From: a bacterium
Lineage (GTDB): Bacteria; UBP15; UBA6099; JBFMBQ01
Length of the DNA: 32,894 nt
Assembly (NCBI GenBank): GCA_040755115.1
Contig: JBFMBQ010000512.1
Span: forward strand, 4,515 to 37,408
Reading direction: 5' to 3'
The position numbers and the translations under genes were made by a program. Shown here piece by piece: positions 2,990 through 23,337 of the stretch. The notes under the pieces are model-generated. The model was given only the letters and a program-made list of their open reading frames with translations. It had not been told where the DNA came from and did no database searches. How positions within the stretch are numbered: position 1 is the first letter of the stretch; the number at the start of each line of letters is the position of its first letter.

Positions 2990-3014
2990 AAATATAATTT
3001 CAACGCCCCCACAC

Positions 3015-5486
3015 CTATTTAAAATTGATTGTGATCTCATCCCCCGTATATGTAACGATTCGGTCGGGTTTTTCTACCGCCTGGACTCCAACGCCGCGGT
3101 TTTCGGTAACCAATATGATGTTGAAGGTTCTTTTTGTCAGCATGCCGGGGAATGAACCTATGCGTTGACCGATGGTAAGTGATCGGGCTGATTCGTTCCA
3201 CTTCAACGGTATGATGGAATAGACACCTTTTTCGTAATTGTAATTGTCGCCCTCGTCCTCGTATATGATGAAGTCTGCGTCGGCGCCCGGATAGATGCGC
3301 AACTCTATCGGATCGGCTGGCTTTTCCGCCGCATACTGGAGTTCAGGTCCCATAGGAATAATAGAACCGCCCTTCACATAGAGCGGCATAATGTCTATCG
3401 GTGCAGGCGCTTCAATCGTCTGTCCGCCAGCAAAGAACTTTCCTGTCCAGAAATCATACCAGCCGGCTGCCGCTTCTGGTAAATATACGCTGCGGCTCCT
3501 TATCTCTTTATTGATGATTATTCTCCCGTCTATCTTCGCATCATGTTTTTCCTTCAGCATTTTCTGTGAAGGCGTCAGCCGTTCAATATGATACATCGGT
3601 TTCGTAACAGGATTTACAAGTATTGCAGGACCGAACATGAACTGGTCATCGATGCCGAGTATGTTTGGATCGCTTCTGAAATCAAACGGCAGTCCCCTCA
3701 TAATCGTGTAGCCTTCACTCGTAACCTTCCACGCCAGCGAATATATATACGGCAGCATGCGGTAGCGCAGGATGTCAAATTTTTCAAGCGTGTCATAAGC
3801 CCATGTTTTCGGCTCGCCGAATTGCCAGATTTCCCGCGGCGTGCTTGACCCGTGTGAACGGAAAATCGGGCAGAATGCGCCGTATTGAAACCACCTCACA
3901 TACAATTCACGAAATTCGTCATTTTTGCGTCCGCTCCCGTATTTTACGGTAAATCCTCCTATGTCCGTCGTCCAGTAAGGAATCCCCGCCATGCTGAAAT
4001 TCAACCCAGCGGAAATCTGTTTCCTGAATACATCCCAGGTGGATAAAATATCTCCCGACCAGGTTACCGCCGCATGCCGCTGCTGACCTGCAAACGCTGA
4101 ACGCGCAAGAATAAAAACGCGCTTGTCCGATGTGGTTTCACGCTGCCCTTCATAGACACCTTTAGTCGTCATCAGCGAATACGCATTCAAATATCTTGCC
4201 GTTGAACCAAGCGCAGTTCGTTCAGCGCTCTTCATCATTTCTATCGTATGCTCTTGTGTCAGCGCATGGTCAAATTCCGGCTCGGTTACATCCAACCACC
4301 AGGCATCCATCCCCTTTGAGAAAAATCCCTTCTTGATATGATCCCAGTAAATTTTTCGTGCATCGCCGTTGAAAGCGTCGTAAGTGTAACTGCCGTGACT
4401 GTCGGGGACGGAATAAAGATAACCCTTGTTTTTCATTTCCTTATATATCGGAGTTTCAGGTCCGAACTTCGTCCAGACGGAAATCATCACATGCAAGTGG
4501 TATTTCTCATGCAGTTCGCGGATCATACCTTCAGGATCGGGGAAATTTTTTCTGTCAAAATCCATAGCATTCCAGCCGAGGTCGCCCCAGTATTGCCAGT
4601 CCTGCACAATGCTGTCCAGAGGAAGTCGCCGCTCCCTGTATTCCTTTGCGACACCTGTCAATTCATCCTGCGTTTTATATCTTTCCTTACACTGCCAGTA
4701 TCCGTAAGCCCATTTCCCGAACATCGGCGCATATCCCGTGAGTTCCCTGTAGCCGGCAATTATGTCGTCCGCATCAGGTCCATAGATGAAGTAATAATCA
4801 ATGGCATCCGCTACCTCCGACCAGAAATAAGTCCCGTCTTCACCGTCATGAAATTTTGTTAATGAATAGTTGTCCCACAGTATGCCGTACCCGTTCGTTG
4901 AAAGCAGAAATGGAACGACGGCGACCGTATTCGCCTGTGCGAGCAGGACATCGTGTCCGCGGTAATTCATTATCCCCTCCTGATATTGCCCCAACCCATA
5001 AAGCCCTTCATCTGCGGATAAAACGAAACTCTGTTCTGCATGATAAACATCTTCACCAAGGACATCGGCTTCGGTCATTGTTTTTCCGCCCGCTGCCGGC
5101 TCCCGCAGGACGACAACACCGTCCTCGTAGTAGAAAGTTATCGCGCCGGTTTTCATTGATACTTCTGCCTGAATCTTGTTAGTTGTAAGTGATACGAAGT
5201 CTTTGTCTTCCTTCAAGTCCCATTTCACTGAAGGGCGAGGTTTATCAACAATCATCAGGCTTTTTCTCTCAGGAAATTTATCTATGGGAGTATAAACAAT
5301 GTGCAGGATATTCTCAGCGCAGACCTCTATTTTCATTTTCCCTGGCTGCATTTTCAAAATCAGTCCATTTTCAGCGCGCTCGTATTCGCTCACCGGTATC
5401 GCCTCACCACAGCAGACAGGAATCATAGCCAACAACAGAAAGGGGACTGCTTTACAAAATTGTTTTAATCTTATTATAGTTTTCAA
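3015..5486 (-). CDS. Glycoside hydrolase family 31 (alpha-glucosidase/alpha-xylosidase-like), secreted
   Basis: KWAYGYWQCKERYKTQDEL, VQDWQYW, WWLDVTEPE and TTDIGGF are GH31 catalytic-domain motifs. The N-terminus has a signal-like segment (KAVPFLLLAMIPVCCGE). The start is TTG at 5486 and is uncertain. Confidence 0.85.
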   Translation of the reverse strand: MKTIIRLKQFCKAVPFLLLAMIPVCCGEAIPVSEYERAENGLILKMQPGKMKIEVCAENILHIVYTPIDKFPERKSLMIVDKPRPSVKWDLKEDKDFVSLTTNKIQAEVSMKTGAITFYYEDGVVVLREPAAGGKTMTEADVLGEDVYHAEQSFVLSADEGLYGLGQYQEGIMNYRGHDVLLAQANTVAVVPFLLSTNGYGILWDNYSLTKFHDGEDGTYFWSEVADAIDYYFIYGPDADDIIAGYRELTGYAPMFGKWAYGYWQCKERYKTQDELTGVAKEYRERRLPLDSIVQDWQYWGDLGWNAMDFDRKNFPDPEGMIRELHEKYHLHVMISVWTKFGPETPIYKEMKNKGYLYSVPDSHGSYTYDAFNGDARKIYWDHIKKGFFSKGMDAWWLDVTEPEFDHALTQEHTIEMMKSAERTALGSTARYLNAYSLMTTKGVYEGQRETTSDKRVFILARSAFAGQQRHAAVTWSGDILSTWDVFRKQISAGLNFSMAGIPYWTTDIGGFTVKYGSGRKNDEFRELYVRWFQYGAFCPIFRSHGSSTPREIWQFGEPKTWAYDTLEKFDILRYRMLPYIYSLAWKVTSEGYTIMRGLPFDFRSDPNILGIDDQFMFGPAILVNPVTKPMYHIERLTPSQKMLKEKHDAKIDGRIIINKEIRSRSVYLPEAAAGWYDFWTGKFFAGGQTIEAPAPIDIMPLYVKGGSIIPMGPELQYAAEKPADPIELRIYPGADADFIIYEDEGDNYNYEKGVYSIIPLKWNESARSLTIGQRIGSFPGMLTKRTFNIILVTENRGVGVQAVEKPDRIVTYTGDEITINFK

Positions 5487-5501
5487 TGGTTTAACTTTGA
5501 T

Positions 5502-5529
5502 ATTATATAGAGGCTTCCTTATTTTTCAA
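5502..5529 (-). promoter_or_regulatory. Candidate sigma70-type promoter upstream of the GH31 gene
   Basis: The minus strand reads TTGAAA-N16-TATAAT. It would give a very short leader before the TTG start, so confidence is low. Confidence 0.3.
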
Positions 5530-5571
5530 CAATTAATACCGAGTTGCAATCAAACGATTACTAACAAATGT

Positions 5572-5610
5572 AAAAAAATGAGATTGCCACGGCGCTGCGC
5601 GCCTCGCAAT
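5572..5610 (-). terminator. Rho-independent terminator-like hairpin downstream of the 213-aa ORF
   Basis: The minus strand reads attgcgaggcgc-gca-gcgccgtggcaat followed by ctcattttttt. It is a GC-rich imperfect palindrome followed by a T7 run. Confidence 0.55.
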
Positions 5611-5688
5611 GACAGTTTTTGAACGCACCTTAGTATAAAAAACATGATGTTGTTAATAATTTTTTCATCATTTCATGGCAATAAATAA

Positions 5689-5718
5689 TGTAGGGGCGCA
5701 TGGCAGTGCGTCCCTACA
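5689..5718. repeat. REP-like palindrome, single unit (TGTAGGGGCGCA...TGCGTCCCTACA)
   Basis: tgtaggggcgcatggcagtgcgtccctaca. It has the same TGTAGGG/CCCTACA termini as the other three loci. Confidence 0.7.
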
Positions 5719-5787
5719 TCTGTGTAATATATAGATTATCTTTTATCGCTGAAAGTTATTAATTTAAGAATTGCATAATATCTAATA

Positions 5788-6429
5788 TCACTTGAGTATA
5801 AACTCACCAATCAATTTCTCAGCATAATCAGATGATGCACCCAATTTCATTAATGTTTCTTTTATTCTATCTATATTATGTTTACTCTTTATATCGGTGT
5901 CTTTCTCCATCAATTTCATCATATCCAATTCATCTTGCTTTGTCTGGATCGCACTTCTGTCTGGCGACATAATTGATGATATTTTTACGGCTATCAGATT
6001 ATTTTTTTCTAAATAGTAGATCTTCTCATCGCCCAATTTATCTGCGACTTTATTATCCAGAAGAAAATGTTGCTCTGGCATAATTTCTAATAAATGCAGA
6101 TTCACTTTACCATATATAACTTGAGCGGCAGTGCTGGAATACTCATTAATTACTGCTCCTGAAGTTCTGAACCTGTCAATGAGTTTCTCATAATATCCCT
6201 TGCGTATCATCAAATCAATATCAGCGGTTGCCCTCGGAGTTGTATAATAACTCACAGCCCAGGCGCCAATGACCACATAATTATCGCCAATGGTATCATT
6301 AACAATACCAATTGCGCTCTTGTATGAAGCCCCATTAACTTCCATCAACATATCAACCATTTCAGATGGTGACATTCCATCTATGATAAAATCGGCATAT
6401 TCATGAGTTAAGTTTTTTACTTTCAGCAC
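5788..6429 (-). CDS. Hypothetical protein, possible nucleotidyltransferase-fold (MNT/AbiEii-like) protein
   Basis: The ORF is AT-rich. The segment VVIGAWAVSYYTTPRATADIDLMI resembles the G-x-A-x(n)-R-x-T-x-D-x-D signature of minimal nucleotidyltransferases. The GTG start is uncertain and the function call is weak. Confidence 0.4.
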   Translation of the reverse strand: MLKVKNLTHEYADFIIDGMSPSEMVDMLMEVNGASYKSAIGIVNDTIGDNYVVIGAWAVSYYTTPRATADIDLMIRKGYYEKLIDRFRTSGAVINEYSSTAAQVIYGKVNLHLLEIMPEQHFLLDNKVADKLGDEKIYYLEKNNLIAVKISSIMSPDRSAIQTKQDELDMMKLMEKDTDIKSKHNIDRIKETLMKLGASSDYAEKLIGEFILK

Positions 6430-7168: not shown

Positions 7169-7226
7169 ACTTAGATTATTTTAGTATACCAATTTTTATA
7201 ACATCCTTATAGTATAAATAAAAAAA

Positions 7227-7342
<116 letters not shown>

Positions 7343-7759: not shown

Positions 7760-8215
7760 ATTCTATGAATTTTCTCTAATATTTTTTTAACTCTTTCTGT
7801 TTTCCCATCCATTATATCCGCTTTCTTTCAGTTATTGTGAATTCACCTCCTTTCTGTTGTTTTTTCAGCAACTCTTCACAAGTGCACAGGCGAGAAGCGG
7901 AAAGCAGATATAATTAACTAATGATTACAAAAGGGTCAAGCGATTGACCAATTAGTACCGGTCTGCTCAACGCATTACTGCGCTTACACACCCGGCCTAT
8001 CAACCTGATAATCTTTCAGGGGTCTCTCGCATCTTGCGATGCATGGAGATCTCTTCTTGGGATGGGTTTCGCACTTAGATGCTTTCAGTGCTTATCCCGA
8101 CCGGACATGGCTACCCTGCAATGCCGCTGGCGCGACAACAGGTACACCAGAGGTCCGTCCATCCAGGTCCTCTCGTACTATGGACAGACTCCCTCAAATC
8201 TCCAGCGCCCACGAA

Positions 8216-8300
<85 letters not shown>

Positions 8301-8303
8301 GTC

Positions 8304-8391
<88 letters not shown>

Positions 8392-8568
8392 GGTAACTTT
8401 TATCCATTGAGCGATGGCCCTTCCACGCAGCGCCACCGGATCACTAGGTCCTGCTTTCGCATCTGCTCGACCCGTCGGTCTCACAGTCAAGCACCCTTAT
8501 GCCCTTACACTCAACGCACGATTTCCGACCGTGCTGAGGGTACCTTTGAATGCCTCCGTTACAGTTTG

Positions 8569-8601
<33 letters not shown>

Positions 8602-8822
8602 ACACTGTTCCCCCGCCGGCTAACGGCGCAGGGTTAGAACTCCGACTTACCCAGGGTGGTATTTCAAGGTTGGCTCCAGGGGACCTGACGACCCCCCTTC
8701 AAAGCCTCCCACCTATCCTACACAGGACAAACCAAAGTTCAGTGCCAGGCTACAGTAAAGCTCCACGGGGTCTTTCCGTCCTTTCGTGGGTAACCCGCAT
8801 CTTCACGGGTAGTGCAGTTTCG

Positions 8823-8901
<79 letters not shown>

Positions 8902-9604
8902 CTAATCTGTTACTTTGTAACTCTGGTTTCCCAGAGCGGACTGGTCATTTCTGCCAGTCTCCCTGTGTCGCCACAGGGTACGGACTGTATCTTCACCCTT
9001 TCAGGATGTCCGGCGTTCAGTCTCTGAGGATGCTAAAAACCGTGATATTTTTCTCCTGTTCATAGTTTGGGCGATTTCGGCTATCTCCTTAATACCTTCC
9101 AATGTCTGATGCTTACCTTCTTTCATCATCTTAACAACCCGTACAAACTTCTGAAAATCATCCTTCTTCGCGGTTCGCAATGGATTTTCCAAGAAAAAAG
9201 GAATTATCTTGTCCTGCAAATCTTTCAAACTGCGGACGCAATACCTATAAAGGTGTTCTTTATGAGTATCATGTCTACGGTTTATAAAGATATTCCCACA
9301 ACTAAAAAATTCTTTAAGTAATTCTAAAGATTGCCGACTTTTTTCGCCCTGTGTAACTACAAACTCGGGAAATACCTGCCAGCCTATAGATGTTGAAGCC
9401 TTCTGAATTGTTACAGAAAAGCATCCCTCTCCATCTATAAAGCCAACTATCCAGCCTGTGGTTTTTAGCCTTTCCTGCTGATTGTCTGCACCCATCACAT
9501 TGTTACCTCAAAATTTTTCAAGGTAGTGTGGGATACTAACCAGATGTTCCAGCATACAGCCGGATGCGCTTATATCATTATTGATATAAAGGGCAACTTA
9601 TGTT
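8902..9604 (-). mobile_element. Group I intron in 23S rRNA at the position equivalent to E. coli U1931 (L1931)
   Basis: A 703-nt insertion between ...AACGGTCCTAAGGT and AGCGAAATTCC.... The 5' exon ends in U and the intron ends in G. Core elements: P-like GGCTGTATGCTGGAA (9547-9561), Q-like AATCAGCAGG (9474-9483), R-like TCAGAGACTGAA (9016-9027) and S-like AAGATACAGTCC (8982-8993). Confidence 0.85.
9001..9498 (-). CDS. LAGLIDADG homing endonuclease (single-motif type) encoded in the L1931 intron
   Basis: A 165-aa protein with the motif WIVGFIDGEGCF. It is AT-rich relative to the rRNA exons. Its 5' end overlaps the Q element and its 3' end overlaps the R element of the intron. Confidence 0.85.
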   Translation of the reverse strand: MMGADNQQERLKTTGWIVGFIDGEGCFSVTIQKASTSIGWQVFPEFVVTQGEKSRQSLELLKEFFSCGNIFINRRHDTHKEHLYRYCVRSLKDLQDKIIPFFLENPLRTAKKDDFQKFVRVVKMMKEGKHQTLEGIKEIAEIAQTMNRRKISRFLASSETERRTS

Positions 9605-9607
9605 ACC

Positions 9608-10162
9608 TTAGGACCGTTCGTTGATGTTAACTTCCGGTTTACCGGAAGACCGGACTATATCATCATCCAATCTGTTGAAATCAGATGTCTGGCGTATAGT
9701 CTCTGAGGATTCCTGAAACTTCTTAAGTATCTTCCCTTCGCTGTACCTGCGCTTGCCGCCGTCGTTCATCTCACGCCGTATTTCAAGAATTTTCCTTATC
9801 CCTTCTTCTGTGAGATGCTCCCCTTTTTGGATCATCTCAGCCGCCTTGCAGAACTTTGAGAAATCACGCTTCTTCTTCGCGGATAGAAAACGGTATTTCT
9901 TGAAGAACGGGATTACTTTCTCCCAAAGAGCATTGAAGTTATTTACCTCGTAATACCAGACGCCGTCTGGTCTGCTTCTCAATGTCCCGCAGCCTAAATG
10001 GCGTTTATACAGCGCGAGGATAACCTTGTCCCTTTGTGAGATATTGAAACACAGGGAGACTTTCCACGGCGTTTTGTAATCTGCGCGGGGTCTTAAGGAA
10101 ATATTGAAACTTCCTTCTCCGTCAGCGAAGCCTGCCAGATAATAACCTATCTCTGGTCTCAT
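9608..10162 (-). CDS. LAGLIDADG homing endonuclease (single-motif type) encoded in the L1917 intron
   Basis: A 184-aa protein with the motif YLAGFADGEGSF. The ORF runs through the intron 3' end and its TAA stop (9608-9610) lies inside the 14-nt micro-exon. Confidence 0.85.
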   Translation of the reverse strand: MRPEIGYYLAGFADGEGSFNISLRPRADYKTPWKVSLCFNISQRDKVILALYKRHLGCGTLRSRPDGVWYYEVNNFNALWEKVIPFFKKYRFLSAKKKRDFSKFCKAAEMIQKGEHLTEEGIRKILEIRREMNDGGKRRYSEGKILKKFQESSETIRQTSDFNRLDDDIVRSSGKPEVNINERS

Positions 10163-10309
10163 GGCTGACTCCCTTCTTCAGGTCTTTCCTGCTGATTGTC
10201 CCTATCTGACAGATTGTTACGACCCGTCCCTTGATATAACGGATGTACTGTCAGCCTGACAGGATTTTCCAGCATATAGCCAGATTTTATAACTACTGTG
10301 GTCCAAACA
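9619..10309 (-). mobile_element. Group I intron in 23S rRNA at the position equivalent to E. coli U1917 (L1917)
   Basis: A 691-nt insertion between ...GCCGTAACTAT and AACGGTCC.... The 5' exon ends in U and the intron ends in G. Core elements: P-like GGCTATATGCTGGAA (10267-10281), Q-like AATCAGCAGG (10188-10197), R-like TCAGAGACTATA (9695-9706) and S-like ATGATATAGTCC (9652-9663). Confidence 0.85.
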
Positions 10310-10929
10310 ATAGTTACGGCCGCCGTTCACTGGGGCTTCGGTCGTGGGCTTCGCCCCCCGAAAGGGGCTGACTCACTTCCTTAACCTTCCAGCACCGGGC
10401 AGGCGTCAGTCTCTATACATCGGCTTTCGCCTTAGCAGAGACCTGTGTTTTTGCTAAACAGTCGCCTGGGCCTCTTTACTGCGGCCCCCTCGGGCTAAGC
10501 AGCAGGAGTTAACCTGCCCTCTGCCCTACCGGGGCACCCCTTCTCCCGAAGTTACGGGGCGATTTTGCCTAGTTCCTTAACGAGGGTTCTCTCGCTCGCC
10601 TTAGGATATTCTCCTCGCCTACCTGTGTCGGTTTACGGTACGGTCACCTGTGCTCCTCCTTAGAGGTTTTTCCTGGCAGTATGAGTGCGGTCAGTTCGCT
10701 TTATCCGAAGATGCCGCTCCTCCTTCCCCTCAGAGTTGAATGGGCGCATGCATTTTCACGCACCCCTCCTACAGAGTTGGAACACACACTTCCATCCGTG
10801 TGATGACCTGCCCTCCTGCGTTACCCCATCAGTGCAAGCGTTGCACAGGTGGTGCTGGAATATTAACCAGCTAGCCATCGCCTACGCCTCTCGGCCTCGG
10901 CTTAGGACCGACTGACCCTGGGCGGACGA

Positions 10930-10960
<31 letters not shown>

Positions 10961-12468
10961 GATGAGATTCTCACTCATCTCTCGCTACTCGTACCGGCAT
11001 TCTCACTTCTATCCAGTCCACCAGTCCTTGCGGTCTGGCTTCACTCCACGATAGAACGCTCCCCTACCACTCCGCTCGCCGCCGCAGCGGCAAGACGAAG
11101 TCCGTGGCTTCGGTGTCAGGCTTAAGCCCCGTTACATTTTAGGCGCAGAGCCACTTGACCAGTGAGCTATTACGCACTCTTTAAATGGTGGCTGCTTCTA
11201 AGCCAACATCCTGGTTGTCTCTGTAATTCAACATCCTTCTCCACTTAGCCTGACTTAGGGACCTTAGCCGACGGTCTGGGCTGTTTCCCTCTCGACTACG
11301 GAGCTTATCCCCCGCAGTCTCACTCCCAGGGTCTCACCTGCGGTATTCGGAGTTTGATTGGGTTTGGTAACCGGTGAAGGCCCCTAGTCCATTCAGTGCT
11401 CTACCTCCGCAGGCTAAATTCCTGAGGCTGCCCTTAAAGGCATTTCGGGGAGAACCAGCTATAACCAGGCTCGGTTGGCTTTTCACCGCTATCCACAACT
11501 CATCCAAGCCCTTTTCAACGGACACTGGTTCGGACCTCCACATGGTCTTACCCATGTTTCATCCTGGTCATGGATGGATCGCCTGGCTTCGGGTCTATAG
11601 CGCACAACTGGGTCGCCCTGTTCAGACTCGCTTTCGCTCCGGCTCCGGGTTGTAACCCCTTAACCTTGCTGCGCACCATAACTCGCCGGTTCATTCTACA
11701 AAAGGCACGCTGTCAGGCATTCCGTGCGCGCCGAAACGCACATGGCATAGCCCTCCAACGGTTTGTAGGCATGCGGTTTCAGGTTCTATTTCACTCCCCT
11801 AACAGGGGTTCTTTTCGCCTTTCCCTCACGGTACTTGTCCACTATCGGTCACCAGGTAGTATTTAGCCTTGGAGGGTGGTCCCCCCAGTTTCCCAAGGGA
11901 TTTCCCGTGTCCCATGGTACTTAGGAACAGATGCCAGAGCCATTCCCCTTTCGTGCACGGGACTGTCACCCTCTATGGTGTCACTTTCCAGAGACTTGCA
12001 CTAAAGGAACGGTTTGTAACTCTGCCGCCCGGCCACAGCCGAACGCGCATCTGCCCTGCAACCCCGCAGCGACAACGCCTGTGGGCTTGACATCGCCACG
12101 GTTTAGGCTTCTCCCCGTTCGCTCGCCACTACTAAGGGAATCTCGGTTGATTTCTCTTATGCGGGGTACTGAGATGTTTCACTTCCCCCACTTCGCCTCC
12201 ACACCCTATTTTATTCAGGTGCGGATGACGGGGCATTACCCCCGCCGGGTTTCCCCATTCGGAGACCTACGGATCTAAGGATGCTCGCTCCTCCCCGTAG
12301 ATTATCGCAGCCTGCCGCGTCCTTCGTCGCCTCCCAGTGCCAAGGCATCCACCGCATGCCCTTGCTCGCTTGACCCTCATCTTTTCACTAAGATCAAAAT
12401 CTGCCTACCCACTTCTCTAGCCTATGCACTTGTCAAGGTTCGCCGGCTTTAAGCCATTTTATTCCGAT

Positions 12469-17455: not shown

Positions 17456-18457
17456 TCACTTTCTCATTTCCCTCTTAATCTTTAATTCTGACACTCGACT
17501 CATTATTCGTTTTCTATCCTGCAATGTGTTCCTTTCCCAAAAAACCCCGTCGTCGTAGCCCTGTATTGTCTTGTCTTTCTCGGCAAGATGCAGCCGCTTT
17601 TCTGCAAGGCAGCAGTAAATTTCGTCAATCTCAACGCCAGCGTATCGCCTGCCGAGTTTTTTCGCAACGACGGATGTTGTGCCGGAGCCTGAAAACGGGT
17701 CAAAAACGAAATCGCCTTCATTGGAACTTGCGAGAATGATTTTTGCAAGGAGTTTTTCAGGTTTCTGTGTCGGGTGGTCTGTGTTTTCAGGCATTGACCA
17801 GAAGGGAATGGTCATGTCGTTCCAGATGTTAGACGGATGCGTCAGGCGGAAGCCGCCATCATCGCTCTTCTCCCAGTCTTTGGGCATCCTGTTTTCGTCT
17901 GTATAAGGTGCAATTACCCTTCGCTTAAGTTTCACCGCATCAATGTTGAAAGTGTATTTATCCGACTTCGTGCAGAACCATATATCTTCCGAACAGTTCT
18001 TCCAGTTTGACTTTGCCCCTCTGCCCTTCTCGCGTTCCCAGGTGATGCGGTTTCGGATGATCAGATGATGTCTTTCAAGGACTCTGTGAATTGCGGCTGA
18101 CGAGCGCCAATCGCCGCAGATATACACCGATGCGGTGGGCTTGAGAACATTTATAAGTTTTGGAAACCATTTTTCAAACCATTCTTCATATTCCACTGTC
18201 GTCATTTCTTTGAACTGATTTGAACTGAATGATTTTGTGATGTTGTAAGGTGGATCAATAAAGAGAAGATCAACGAAATTTGCGGGGAGAAAATTCAGTA
18301 TTTCAAAAAGATTCTGGCAGATTGTTTTGTTTTCAATATCTCTGGTTTCAACTTTGCGGGTAAGTTTAATCAGTTTTCTGCCGAAAAATTTCTTCTCTGC
18401 GGGCGTGAGCGAGACAGTCCTGTTTCGCGGCGCGCGGGTTTTTTCTTTATTGTTCAT
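17456..18457 (-). CDS. Site-specific DNA methyltransferase, beta-class N6-adenine/N4-cytosine family (DPPY type), no cognate nuclease nearby
   Basis: Motif IV LLFIDPPYNI precedes motif I FDPFSGSGTTSVVA, the beta-class permutation of the N6_N4 MTase family. HPTQKPEKLL is also present. Confidence 0.85.
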   Translation of the reverse strand: MNNKEKTRAPRNRTVSLTPAEKKFFGRKLIKLTRKVETRDIENKTICQNLFEILNFLPANFVDLLFIDPPYNITKSFSSNQFKEMTTVEYEEWFEKWFPKLINVLKPTASVYICGDWRSSAAIHRVLERHHLIIRNRITWEREKGRGAKSNWKNCSEDIWFCTKSDKYTFNIDAVKLKRRVIAPYTDENRMPKDWEKSDDGGFRLTHPSNIWNDMTIPFWSMPENTDHPTQKPEKLLAKIILASSNEGDFVFDPFSGSGTTSVVAKKLGRRYAGVEIDEIYCCLAEKRLHLAEKDKTIQGYDDGVFWERNTLQDRKRIMSRVSELKIKREMRK

Positions 18458-22050: not shown

Positions 22051-23337
22051 ATGACCATCTTTTCAATCGGATTAAACCACGAGGCGGCGCCGGTAGAAAT
22101 CCGCGAGAAGATATATTTCCCCCCTGATCGCATCCCATCGCTTCTGTCCGTTCTGCGCGAATCGGGACGCCTGACAGAGGCGAACATACTTTCCACCTGC
22201 AACCGCACGGAGGTATATTTCGCCTCTGACAACGGCGACGAAGAGCGAAAACTTGTCGTGGAATTTCTCACACGGGAAGCCGGATGCACTGCGGAGGAAC
22301 TCAAAAAGTTTCTTTATACACTTACCGATGAAGCGGCGGTGAAACATCTTTTCAGGGTAGCCTCTGGACTGGACTCAATGGTTGTAGGCGAGGGGCAGGT
22401 GCTTGCGCAGGTTCGTAAAGCATACGAGGCGGCGGACGGGCAGAGGGCGCTCGGCAAGGTGTTGGGCACGCTTTTCAGGAGTGCGGTTGCGACCGGCAAG
22501 CGTGCGCGGGCTGAAACCGAGATCAGCAAGAATGCGGTATCTGTGAGTTCGGCGGCGGTGGAACTTGCCGGGACGCTTTTCGGCAGCCTCGGGCGAAAGA
22601 CAGCATTGATAATCGGCGCAGGCAAAATGAGCGAACTTTCCATCAAACACCTGCGCTCCGCCAACCTTCAGAATGTAACAGTTACAAACCGCACATACGA
22701 ACATGCAGTTGCACTCGCTGAAAAATTCCACGCCGCCGTTATGCCGTTCGGCGAACTTGAAGCCGCTGTCGCCGCCGCTGATGTCGTCATCAGTTCCACA
22801 GGCTCACCGCAGCCGATAGTATCACGCACGATGATGCAGTCAATTATGCGCCGCAGGAGAAATCGCCCGATCTTTATCGTTGACATCGCCGTGCCGCGCG
22901 ACTTTGACCCCGCTTGCGCCTCCGTTACAAACTGCTTCCTGTATGATATTGACGACCTGAAAGCGGTCGTGAACCGCAACATTCAGGAGCGAAAAAAAGA
23001 AATCGGCAAGGTGGAGCAGATCGTGGAAGAAGAAACCAGCCGCTACATGCAATGGTACGCATCGCTCGGAGTGATCCCCATTCTCACCGGGTTCAGAGAA
23101 AAGATTCAAGGCATTCGCGACGCCGAACTGCACCGCTTTGAGTCACGGCTGAAACAACTGTCGGAGGGCGACCGCCAGCTGATTGAACAGATTACCAGTT
23201 CAATAATAAACAAGGTTCTGCACCAGCCCACCACACGCCTGAAAGAATTGCAGCAGACAGGCAACGGACTTACCTACGCCGATGCGCTGCGCGTGCTGTT
23301 CGGGCTTGAGGCACCGGGCGAGGAGAACGAAAAATGA
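22051..23337 (+). CDS. hemA: Glutamyl-tRNA reductase
   Basis: The N-terminus is MTIFSIGLNHEAAPVEIREK. The protein also has STCNRTEVY (active-site Cys), GEGQVLAQV and the NADPH-binding IIGAGKMSE. Confidence 0.95.
   Translation: MTIFSIGLNHEAAPVEIREKIYFPPDRIPSLLSVLRESGRLTEANILSTCNRTEVYFASDNGDEERKLVVEFLTREAGCTAEELKKFLYTLTDEAAVKHLFRVASGLDSMVVGEGQVLAQVRKAYEAADGQRALGKVLGTLFRSAVATGKRARAETEISKNAVSVSSAAVELAGTLFGSLGRKTALIIGAGKMSELSIKHLRSANLQNVTVTNRTYEHAVALAEKFHAAVMPFGELEAAVAAADVVISSTGSPQPIVSRTMMQSIMRRRRNRPIFIVDIAVPRDFDPACASVTNCFLYDIDDLKAVVNRNIQERKKEIGKVEQIVEEETSRYMQWYASLGVIPILTGFREKIQGIRDAELHRFESRLKQLSEGDRQLIEQITSSIINKVLHQPTTRLKELQQTGNGLTYADALRVLFGLEAPGEENEK

Follow-up and report, generated by a model that had tools for sequence, protein, structure and literature searches.

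Group I introns with LAGLIDADG endonuclease genes at L1917 and L1931 of a bacterial 23S rRNA gene

A close counterpart of the locus considered here is the 23S rRNA gene of Synechococcus sp. C9, which has introns at L1917, L1931 and L2593, all with LAGLIDADG genes (Haugen et al. 2007, BMC Evol Biol 7:159; PMC1995217). In Thermotoga, L1931 introns are recorded for T. neapolitana, T. naphthophila and T. petrophila and an L1917 intron for T. subterranea (Nesbo & Doolittle 2003, as cited in PMC1995217 and PMC3984707). Active self-splicing is named in the title of that paper as it is cited in PMC3984707, and maturase-like activity has been described for the T. neapolitana 23S intron protein (PMC3984707). 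In the 23S genes of CPR bacteria, hot spots for LAGLIDADG_1 genes lie at 1917, 1931, 1952, 2593, 2604 and 2657, and I-ShaI, the single-domain enzyme of a 691-nt group I-like CPR insert, acts as a homodimer and cleaves its intron-less target (Tsurumaki et al. 2024, J Bacteriol; PMC11270868). The Thermotoga reports provide an experimental basis for the mechanism proposed below.

Coxiella burnetii also has two group I introns close together in this region of the 23S gene, and an endonuclease gene is known in one of the two only. Its sites are 1917 and 1951, separated by a 34-nt exon, as opposed to 1917 and 1931 and a 14-nt exon in the present gene; the second Coxiella intron is Cbu.L1917. The L1951 intron contains a LAGLIDADG gene (Table 1, PMC1995217).

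The 23S rRNA gene and its insertion sites

The window, i.e. the whole stretch of 32,894 nt that was analysed, contains a 23S rRNA gene at 7932..12375 on the minus strand, as are all features described below. The gene matched the Rfam LSU_rRNA_bacteria model with 2704.5 bits over model positions 1-2925, i.e. from end to end, and is 4444 nt long with its introns, compared with 2925 positions in the model; without them it is 3050 nt. A 5S rRNA gene lies downstream (7226..7342; Rfam 5S_rRNA, 112 bits). This was the only rRNA locus visible in the window, and the Rfam scan found no linked 16S gene. The neighbours of the 23S gene, large glycoside hydrolases, HemA and a subtilase, are bacterial chromosomal genes and the bacterial LSU model is the best fit, so an organellar origin was rejected. 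The exons were at most ~82% identical to the loci fetched for comparison, the closest named relative of HemA was 60% identical, and exact look-ups of HemA and of the two intron-encoded proteins, HE1 and HE2, in the contig index gave no match.

The gene was aligned globally with E. coli K-12 rrlB (2904 nt) using MAFFT; in rrlB the last T of TAACTAT is 1917 and the T of AAGGT is 1931. The alignment shows large insertions of 691 nt following 1917 and 703 nt following 1931. The order on the minus strand is GGCCGTAACTAT, 691 nt (10309..9619), AACGGTCCTAAGGT (9618..9605), 703 nt (9604..8902) and AGCGAAATTCC. The 14-nt micro-exon AACGGUCCUAAGGU (9605..9618) thus corresponds to E. coli 1918-1931. The first intron (9619..10309) is preceded by U1917 at 10310 and ends in G at 9619; no sliding of its boundary is possible. 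The second (8902..9604) is preceded by U1931 at 9605 and ends in G at 8902; a one-A slide is possible in this case, and the boundary was fixed by the rule that U comes before the intron and G is its last base. The numbering given by the original prediction is borne out by the alignment to rrlB; the insert sizes, the 14-nt spacing and the terminal bases are exactly as it had them, and the interrupted 26-bp string is the I-CeuI site as printed in PMC2790883. The twin introns account for the 4.4-kb gene, in which annotation pipelines are otherwise prone to call spurious ORFs or a broken rRNA.

By position and by the kinship of their endonucleases the two introns belong to the rDNA lineages L1917 and L1931. 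We put at about 0.9 the probability that the 23S gene contains two mobile group I introns from these known lineages that splice and home as proposed below.

Synechococcus sp. C9 has the same two insertion sites, the same 14-nt micro-exon and likewise a single-motif LAGLIDADG gene per intron (PMC1995217). Its introns are 743 and 666 nt long (691 and 703 nt here) with ORFs of 181 and 167 aa (184 and 165 aa here) that, as in the window, run from P6 through P7, P3 and P8 (PMC1995217). It is a cyanobacterium, whereas the host of the window is an uncultured, heterotroph-like bacterium, and unlike its 23S gene the one in the window has no L2593 intron when aligned to rrlB. In the window L1931 intron P1 is short and is followed by a P2 hairpin, whereas PMC1995217 describes such introns without P2, and the HE1 ORF differs from its Synechococcus counterpart in passing the 3' splice site and stopping in the micro-exon.

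Thermotoga shares the insertion sites and the single-motif LAGLIDADG family with the window, but its species are hyperthermophiles with one intron per gene instead of two. The neighbouring genes and the 3050-nt 23S are unlike those of a CPR genome. HE1 and HE2 share an enzyme superfamily, and distant sequence similarity, with I-CeuI of the Chlamydomonas chloroplast L1923 intron. Both window introns lie within the 26-bp sequence that I-CeuI recognises (PMC2790883), and the L1923 insertion point falls between the two window sites; no L1923 intron is present in the window.

Secondary structure of the two ribozymes

In the L1917 intron, P1 (10290..10316) is formed by exon UAACUAU and intron UGU (10316..10307) pairing with ACAGUAGUUA (10299..10290). 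The UAACUAU/GUAGUUA helix places a U1917•G wobble at the splice site in all 78 homologues, and 92% of P1 cells are paired. The P1 loop has GGACC, a candidate P10 partner of exon GGUCC (1921-1925); GGACC, GACC or GGAC was found in this loop in 72 of the 78.

The helices of the L1917 5' core (10187..10284) were derived by hand: the P3 5' strand (10284..10279), P4 (10274..10269 with 10195..10190), P5 (10264..10261 with 10202..10199), P5a, P5b and the P6 5' strand (10189..10187). Pairing among the 78 homologues is 99.7% or higher in P3, P4, P5 and P6, which show double changes. The 3' core (9631..9717) consists of P6a'/P6' (9717..9707), P7 GACUA (9701..9697), P3' (9693..9688), P8 (9687..9664), P7' UAGUC (9657..9653) and P9 (9648..9631). 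P7 is paired in 100% of cases and P9 in 99.6%; P8 is 82% paired, with all 10 of its pairs covarying. Over the whole core 89.3% of cells are paired, compared with 74.5% after shuffling and 35-45% after sliding, and both sides have changed in 49 of 70 pairs. The covariation score is 0.42 (0.16 shuffled), a value reached by none of 500 shuffles.

The 5' part of the L1931 intron (9473..9607) was likewise derived by hand from P1 to P6, with covariation, as Rfam mis-aligned the 5' half of this intron. P1 consists of exon GGU and AAC (9607..9602) paired with GUUGCC (9597..9592), and is followed by a P2 hairpin (9590..9569), the P3 5' strand (9564..9559), P4 (9554..9549 with 9481..9476) and the P6 5' strand (9475..9473). 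The P2 hairpin, which lacks covariation support, is probably specific to the subtype. In the 3' core (8921..9030) are P6' (9030..9028), P7 GACUG (9022..9018), P3' (9014..9009), P8 (9008..8994), P7' CAGUC (8987..8983), P9 (8978..8961), P9.1 (8959..8939) and P9.2 (8936..8921).

Covariation in the L1931 intron was assessed with 52 homologues, the set being made from 51 ORF-bearing metagenomic introns in place of the 33 genome-set introns; the latter, heterogeneous in length (192-727 nt) and of several subtypes, were left out as MAFFT did not align their 3' cores. The base before the 5' splice site is U in all 52, and 49 of them end in G. The U1931•G pair of P1 (GGU/GCC) is present in 50/52, and pairing amounts to 97% for P3, 100% for P4 and P6, 98% for P7, 95% for P8, 99% for P9 and 94% for P9.1, with compensatory changes in P3, P7, P8, P9 and P9.1. 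P9.2, at 39% paired, and P9.3 lack covariation support among the 52. In total 89.7% of the core is paired, as against 30-44% after sliding. Two group I introns, each with U•G in P1, a terminal G and a covarying P3-P9 core, are thus present as predicted; the P7 pairs GACUA/UAGUC and GACUG/CAGUC occur as described and their covariation is real.

Endonuclease genes and alternative readings

The original prediction placed a single-motif LAGLIDADG gene in each insert, and each ORF indeed contains one LAGLIDADG_1 domain (PF00961; cut-off 23.1 bits) in one stretch. HE1 (9608..10162; 184 aa, motif LAGFADGEGS; 75.7 bits, E 5.8e-21) starts in the P6a loop after a Shine-Dalgarno-like AAGGGAG box. Its frame crosses P6a', P6', P7, P3', P8, P9 and then the 3' splice site before it ends at a UAA stop inside the micro-exon. 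HE2 (9001..9498; 165 aa, motif IVGFIDGEGC; 80.1 bits, E 2.5e-22) starts with GUG/AUG after GAGG just upstream of P4', overlaps P4', P6, P7, P3' and P8, and has its UGA stop in the P8 loop. The two proteins are 34% identical. HE1 has 4168 homologues (best 80-83% identity) and HE2 3645 (best 74%). Against the PDB, HE1 matched domains of I-SmaMI/I-OnuI (E 6e-41) and HE2 matched I-PanMI (E 8e-42), each aligning with both halves of double-motif enzymes. I-CeuI was matched weakly by both (E 1e-8 and 1e-6), whereas 42% identity to I-CeuI is stated for I-ShaI (PMC11270868).

The acidic residue at the motif end is present in both proteins, and the codons for D-G-E-G vary little or not at all among 78 homologues. 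Conservation at the three codon positions is 0.81/0.90/0.50 for HE1 and 0.83/0.87/0.60 for HE2. Third positions vary far more than first and second ones, and both genes are therefore under purifying selection at the codon level.

These observations bear on the reading that the introns are decaying relics, with at least one ribozyme splicing inefficiently and this rrl copy non-functional beside an intron-less copy elsewhere. Decay after fixation is predicted by the cyclic gain-and-loss model (PMC1995217), introns without an ORF occur at either site in many relatives, and only one rRNA locus, with no linked 16S gene, is visible. Against this, no core helix is disrupted in either window copy, neither ORF is truncated, both retain the catalytic D-G-E-G motif and can be aligned with their homologues over the entire length, and the remaining 23S fits the bacterial model over all 2925 positions. 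We consider decay very improbable.

Slightly less probable still is that the inserts are intervening sequences (IVS) excised by RNase III with no ligation, which would leave a fragmented 23S rRNA. IVSs are common in bacterial 23S, and insertions of some kind are present in 18.5% of the non-CPR 23S genes of RefSeq (PMC11270868). The Rfam scores of both window inserts, 38.4 bits for L1917 and 34.0 bits for L1931, are moreover below the gathering score of 50 for Intron_gpI (RF00028), each intron having an ORF of ~500 nt inside P6. With a 1.5-kb query the covariance model nevertheless matched both, as the original prediction expected: the L1917 intron over the full length of the model, with 473 nt inserted in P6 (E 7e-8), and the L1931 intron in its 3' core (E 1.5e-6). 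These E-values, together with the shuffling result for L1917, are far beyond chance, and ORF-less introns of relatives at both sites score 58.7-85.1 bits, above the gathering score. IVSs are known from helices 9, 25 and 45, as short extended hairpins and not as 700-nt endonuclease-bearing elements in helix 69/71. The inserts at 1917 and 1931 both have endonuclease genes and a full group I core, with the crossing topology of P3 and P7, U•G at the 5' splice site and terminal G, supported by covariation. Breakage of helix 69 and release of a free 14-mer would also lose a universally conserved bridge element.

An assembly chimera, in which intron-bearing rDNA pieces from different community members were joined via a conserved exon, is just as improbable: the contig is of metagenome type, rRNA genes are classic chimera sites in such assemblies, and the nearest relatives of HE1 are in Omnitrophota/Elusimicrobiota MAGs and those of HE2 on metagenome contigs mostly lacking an L1917 intron, but the introns share only the 14-nt exon, a length insufficient for a k-mer join, one distant contig (L084) combines the same two endonuclease clades, and numerous independent assemblies have the twin layout, among them complete chromosomes (e.g. 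OX639965, OZ-series records), as does a PCR-sequenced isolate (PMC1995217).

Prevalence, splicing and mobility

Of the 78 species genomes with an L1917 intron, 32 have a further insert after the 14-nt micro-exon, at L1931; conversely, 7 of 51 metagenomic L1931 introns checked are accompanied by an L1917 insert. HE1-like loci have the gene at L1917 in 77 of 78 cases, and HE2-like genes were found at L1931 in 51 loci matching E. coli-type exon patterns, loci with divergent exons having the same layout. Such pairing had originally been thought unusual, which is not upheld by these counts, by the publication of the same pair for Synechococcus sp. C9 (PMC1995217) or by the CPR hot spots (PMC11270868). 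Earlier papers had already described this type of element, both sites, their joint occupation and ORFs that overlap the ribozyme core, and such twin introns are frequent in public genomes. The window therefore carries little weight as a discovery, being real but ordinary, and adds one copy from a further bacterial lineage. The sets of 78 L1917 and 52 L1931 introns show both lineages in more than 15 bacterial phyla, far wider than the 2007 compilation suggested.

It had also been argued that each endonuclease target would overlap the insertion point of the other intron, constraining the order of invasion. A target of ~22 bp with its own insertion point in the middle extends ~11 bp to either side and the other intron is 14 bp away, so mutual overlap is not implied. 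Public twin loci include ORF+/ORF+, ORF+/ORF-less and ORF-less/ORF+ pairs, and no forced order of invasion is evident among them, as far as their sequences indicate.

The structures suggest that the introns would splice as follows. Each would fold its own ribozyme core in the pre-rRNA. An external guanosine would attack the phosphate 3' of the U in the U•G pair of P1 (U1917 or U1931), and the freed exon 3'-OH would then attack after the terminal G, ligating the exons and restoring helix 69 and its surroundings. The micro-exon could serve both ribozymes free of conflict, with GGUCC (1921-1925) in P10 of the first intron and GGU (1929-1931) in P1 of the second. As these segments are separate, the two introns could splice independently and in either order.

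Public sequencing runs were searched with a non-rRNA part of the window, and no run contained it. Runs with a 4-7% word overlap with the intron region were rejected as evidence of splicing: their reads lay on exons only, and the intron-skipping joint was also seen in a run listed as probably DNA. The joint therefore reflects intron-less rDNA of other organisms and not splicing here.

By analogy with described single-motif enzymes, HE1 and HE2 (~19-21 kDa), each encoded in a frame overlapping the 3' ribozyme core, probably act as homodimers. Each would cut 23S alleles that lack its intron, around the point of insertion, and repair would copy the intron in (homing); each may also aid the folding of its own intron as a maturase.

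It is possible, although rather unlikely, that the neighbouring introns are not independent parasites but a loosely coupled tandem unit, with exchangeable endonuclease cassettes and co-conversion of both introns. The cassettes of both introns are flanked by a near-identical core, GACAAUCAGCAGGAAAG upstream and UCCUCAGAGACU downstream. They also appear to change partner, as an HE1-type gene was found in an L1931 ribozyme (locus L021) and HE2-type genes in two L1917 ribozymes (L111 and L155). In a tandem unit, a cut by either enzyme beside the 14-bp micro-exon could co-convert both introns. This would account for the persistence of so many partner introns that have no ORF. At L1931 these are 23 of the 32 introns that accompany an L1917 intron, and at L1917 they are 6 of the 7 that accompany an L1931 intron.

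Paired insertions in the 23S rRNA gene

The window carries a pair of homing group I introns, an element of known type, at sites L1917 and L1931 (after U1917 and U1931 of 23S rRNA, E. coli numbering). The complete bacterial 23S rRNA gene lies on the minus strand (7932..12375, 4444 nt; Rfam 2704 bits, all 2925 model positions), with the 5S gene downstream (7226..7342, minus, Rfam). E. coli K-12 rrlB (2904 nt) served as the numbering reference; its position 1917 is the final U of UAACUAU and its position 1931 the U of AAGGU. In a global alignment with rrlB the gene shows two large insertions, one of 691 nt after 1917 and one of 703 nt after 1931. On the minus strand the first insert (10309..9619) comes after GGCCGUAACUAU, the 14-nt micro-exon AACGGUCCUAAGGU occupies 9618..9605 between the two, and the second insert (9604..8902) is followed by AGCGAAAUUCC.

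The original prediction had divided the conserved stretch in the same way, had given the insertion sites as L1917 and L1931 and had called it the I-CeuI target. The division matches the minus strand exactly, the rrlB alignment shows the numbering to be right, and the 26-bp string split by the introns is printed as the I-CeuI site (PMC2790883). The L1917 boundary is unambiguous; the L1931 boundary could slide by one A, and L1931 was chosen because of the group I rule. An assembly chimera is an unlikely source of the twin layout, as the sequence common to both introns amounts to only 14 nt and both complete chromosomes and a PCR-sequenced isolate show the layout again.

Apart from these, the only notable insertion relative to rrlB lies in domain I (window 12018-12095), where 78 nt are added after position 278; this expansion and several insertions of 8-12 nt bring the intron-free 23S to 3050 nt.

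Ribozyme cores and endonuclease genes

At default thresholds Rfam reported no intron in the window. The Intron_gpI search was repeated on the 1.5-kb region, with matches reported by E-value. The first insert then matched the full model (9631..10319, minus, 38.4 bits, E 7e-8) with a 473-nt insertion in P6, and the second matched at 8961..9145 (minus, 34.0 bits, E 1.5e-6) with its 3' core right and its 5' half mis-aligned into the ORF. Both scores are below the curated 50-bit threshold and the structure was therefore checked independently. In relatives, introns at these two sites that lack an ORF score 58.7-85.1 bits, above the gathering score, so the shortfall in the window is probably due solely to the ORF insertions.

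Helices of the window introns were drawn by hand and pairs were counted on alignments of homologous introns. A scan of one genome per bacterial species for HE1, the LAGLIDADG gene of the L1917 intron, gave matches in 170 species (80 loci retained); a metagenome scan for HE2, its counterpart in the L1931 intron, gave 487 confirmed stretches (80 retained). In the L1917 alignment (A1, n = 78) standard pairs filled 89.3% of cells, compared with 74.5% after column shuffling and 35-45% with slid partners. Both sides had changed in 49 of 70 pairs and the covariation score was 0.42 against 0.16, the observed value being reached by none of 500 shuffles. Pairing was at least 99.6% in P3, P4, P5, P6, P7 and P9, and the U1917•G pair was invariant. 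In the L1931 set (n = 52) 89.7% of cells were paired, against 30-44% with slid partners, and compensatory changes were seen in P3, P7, P8, P9 and P9.1; the base before the 5' splice site is U in 52/52, and 49/52 end in G. P2, P9.2 and P9.3 of the window L1931 intron lack covariation support and are either subtype-specific or drawn wrongly.

Pair counts, covariation and Rfam E-values bear out the group I identification first proposed for both inserts. The P7 difference noticed between them (GACUA/UAGUC and GACUG/CAGUC) falls on a position that covaries within each family, and in the L1931 set this is A-U in 36 introns and G-C in 14. The ribozyme cores, like the insertion sites, contradict a reading of the inserts as IVS-type sequences that leave a fragmented 23S rRNA.

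Each insert holds one single-motif LAGLIDADG gene, as had been predicted: HE1 (9608..10162, minus, 184 aa, motif LAGFADGEGS) and HE2 (9001..9498, minus, 165 aa, motif IVGFIDGEGC) each give one Pfam LAGLIDADG_1 match (E 6e-21 and 2.5e-22, respectively). The two are 34% identical. Each aligns with both halves of double-motif enzymes, among them I-SmaMI, I-PanMI and I-OnuI (about 1e-41), and also matches single-motif archaeal and bacterial structures; the match to I-CeuI is weak. Conservation by codon position (0.81/0.90/0.50 for HE1, 0.83/0.87/0.60 for HE2) indicates purifying selection on both proteins. The helices and ORFs are intact and the 23S is full-length, which contradicts decay or loss of function of the introns or of this 23S copy.

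The HE1 frame opens in the P6a loop, downstream of an AAGGGAG box, and spans P6a', P6', J6/7, P7, P3', P8, P9 and the 3' splice site, ending at the UAA of the micro-exon (9608-9610, E. coli 1926-1928). Such a stop in the micro-exon occurs in 9 of 78 related L1917 introns, the rest ending inside the intron. HE2 runs from slightly upstream of P4' to a stop codon in the P8 loop. The C-terminal 'SSET(I/E)R(Q/R)TS' common to both proteins is the translated conserved J6/7-P7-P3' sequence; ORFs reaching from P6 into the core are known for the L1917 and L1931 lineages (PMC1995217). On the plus strand, opposite the rRNA and introns, there are mechanical ORFs of 53-171 aa (8550-9065, 8866-9027, 9067-9321, 9753-9953); these are almost certainly not genes and could be mis-annotated as such.

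Proposed splicing and homing

The window introns most likely splice by the standard group I mechanism. Each would fold within the pre-rRNA, exogenous guanosine would attack past the U of the U•G pair, and the exon 3'-OH would then attack after the terminal G, joining the exons. GGUCC of the micro-exon (1921-1925) is the complement of GGACC in the P1 loop of the L1917 intron, a P10 candidate found whole or in part in 72 of 78 L1917 relatives, and GGU (1929-1931) makes P1 of the L1931 intron. Both ribozymes are modelled as using the micro-exon, on different nucleotides, and nothing in the predicted structure forces a splicing order.

By analogy with relatives, HE1 and HE2 would act as homodimers on intron-less alleles, leading to homing, and may also have a maturase role. 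I-ShaI, from a CPR 23S intron, cleaves its own site and dimerises (PMC11270868), maturase-like activity is reported for the intron protein of Thermotoga neapolitana (PMC3984707), and active self-splicing of Thermotoga 23S introns is reported according to the reference list of the latter paper. The original prediction inferred that the target of each enzyme spans the neighbour's insertion point. This need not be so: a site of ~22 bp centred on its own insertion point would extend ~11 bp to either side, with the neighbour 14 bp off. All combinations of ORF-containing and ORF-less introns at L1917 and L1931 coexist. For I-CpaI (L1931) the published site begins at about position 1920.

Distribution and host

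The twin arrangement, originally called unusual, is ordinary: it was published in 2007, and an insert directly after the 14-nt micro-exon is present in 32 of the 78 loci whose L1917 site holds an intron. In Synechococcus sp. C9 three introns (L1917, L1931 and L2593) interrupt the 23S gene and all three carry a single-motif LAGLIDADG gene, and L1917 and L1931 introns of Thermotoga and Simkania were listed in the same study (Haugen et al. 2007, PMC1995217). In CPR 23S genes 1917 and 1931 are among the main LAGLIDADG sites (Tsurumaki et al. 2024, PMC11270868). Database relatives at E <= 1e-5 number 4168 for HE1 and 3645 for HE2, and the 80 genome loci of the HE1 scan span Omnitrophota, Elusimicrobiota, Planctomycetia, Chloroflexota, Bipolaricaulota, Acidobacteriota, Nitrospirota, Gammaproteobacteria, CPR groups and others. 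The 32 L1931-site inserts are of 192-461 nt (23) or 637-727 nt (9). Many of the 78 loci also have an L1951 insert, and three species genomes have all three sites filled (L1917/L1931/L1951 of 780/660/868 nt in L049, 759/263/734 nt in L055 and 739/295/266 nt in L029; 23S region, about locus positions 3000-6200). An L1917 partner was present for 7 of 51 complete metagenomic L1931 introns; in the remaining HE2-like loci the exon sequence is divergent and the L1931 position unchanged.

In one fetched locus (L021:3567-4576) the L1917 intron is ORF-less (269 nt), and the L1931-type ribozyme after it contains an HE1-type gene (73% identical to HE1, 34% to HE2). Conversely, L111:379-1061 and L155:56-741 have HE2-type genes (67% and 61% identical to HE2) inside L1917-type ribozymes. 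Insertion site and endonuclease clade are not strictly coupled. In the window, near-identical core sequences flank both ORFs (GACAAUCAGCAGGAAAG ... UCCUCAGAGACU) and could serve as substrate for ORF exchange. The window's clade pairing was found in one fetched locus only (L084:1988-3453, metagenome contig Ga0080064_1000119), with an HE1-type gene (71%) at L1917 and an HE2-type gene (73%) at L1931; its 23S exons are 71-76% identical to those of the window, so the pairing is shared without close kinship. In other double-ORF loci the L1931 enzyme is 42-48% identical to HE2. The clade swaps and the rarity of the shared pairing therefore suggest that the introns assort largely independently, with occasional cassette exchange. 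A reading of the two neighbouring introns as a loosely coupled tandem unit, drawn from clade/site uncoupling and cassette exchange, is improbable.

No 16S or tRNA gene was found anywhere in the 32.9-kb window, which has the 23S-5S pair, and this organism seems to have unlinked rRNA genes. Among named relatives of its glutamyl-tRNA reductase (HemA, 22051-23337) the best is 60% identical ('MAG: bacterium'), further relatives from many phyla are below 50%, and no fetched locus exceeds about 82% identity to the 23S exons. Going by these comparisons, the host lineage is without a close sequenced relative. Besides HemA, the neighbouring genes encode GH2, GH31 and GH38 glycosidases, a subtilase, a radical-SAM protein and a DNA methylase. 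A DNA methylase domain (Pfam N6_N4_Mtase, E 3e-45) is encoded by a 333-aa ORF at 17456-18457 (minus).
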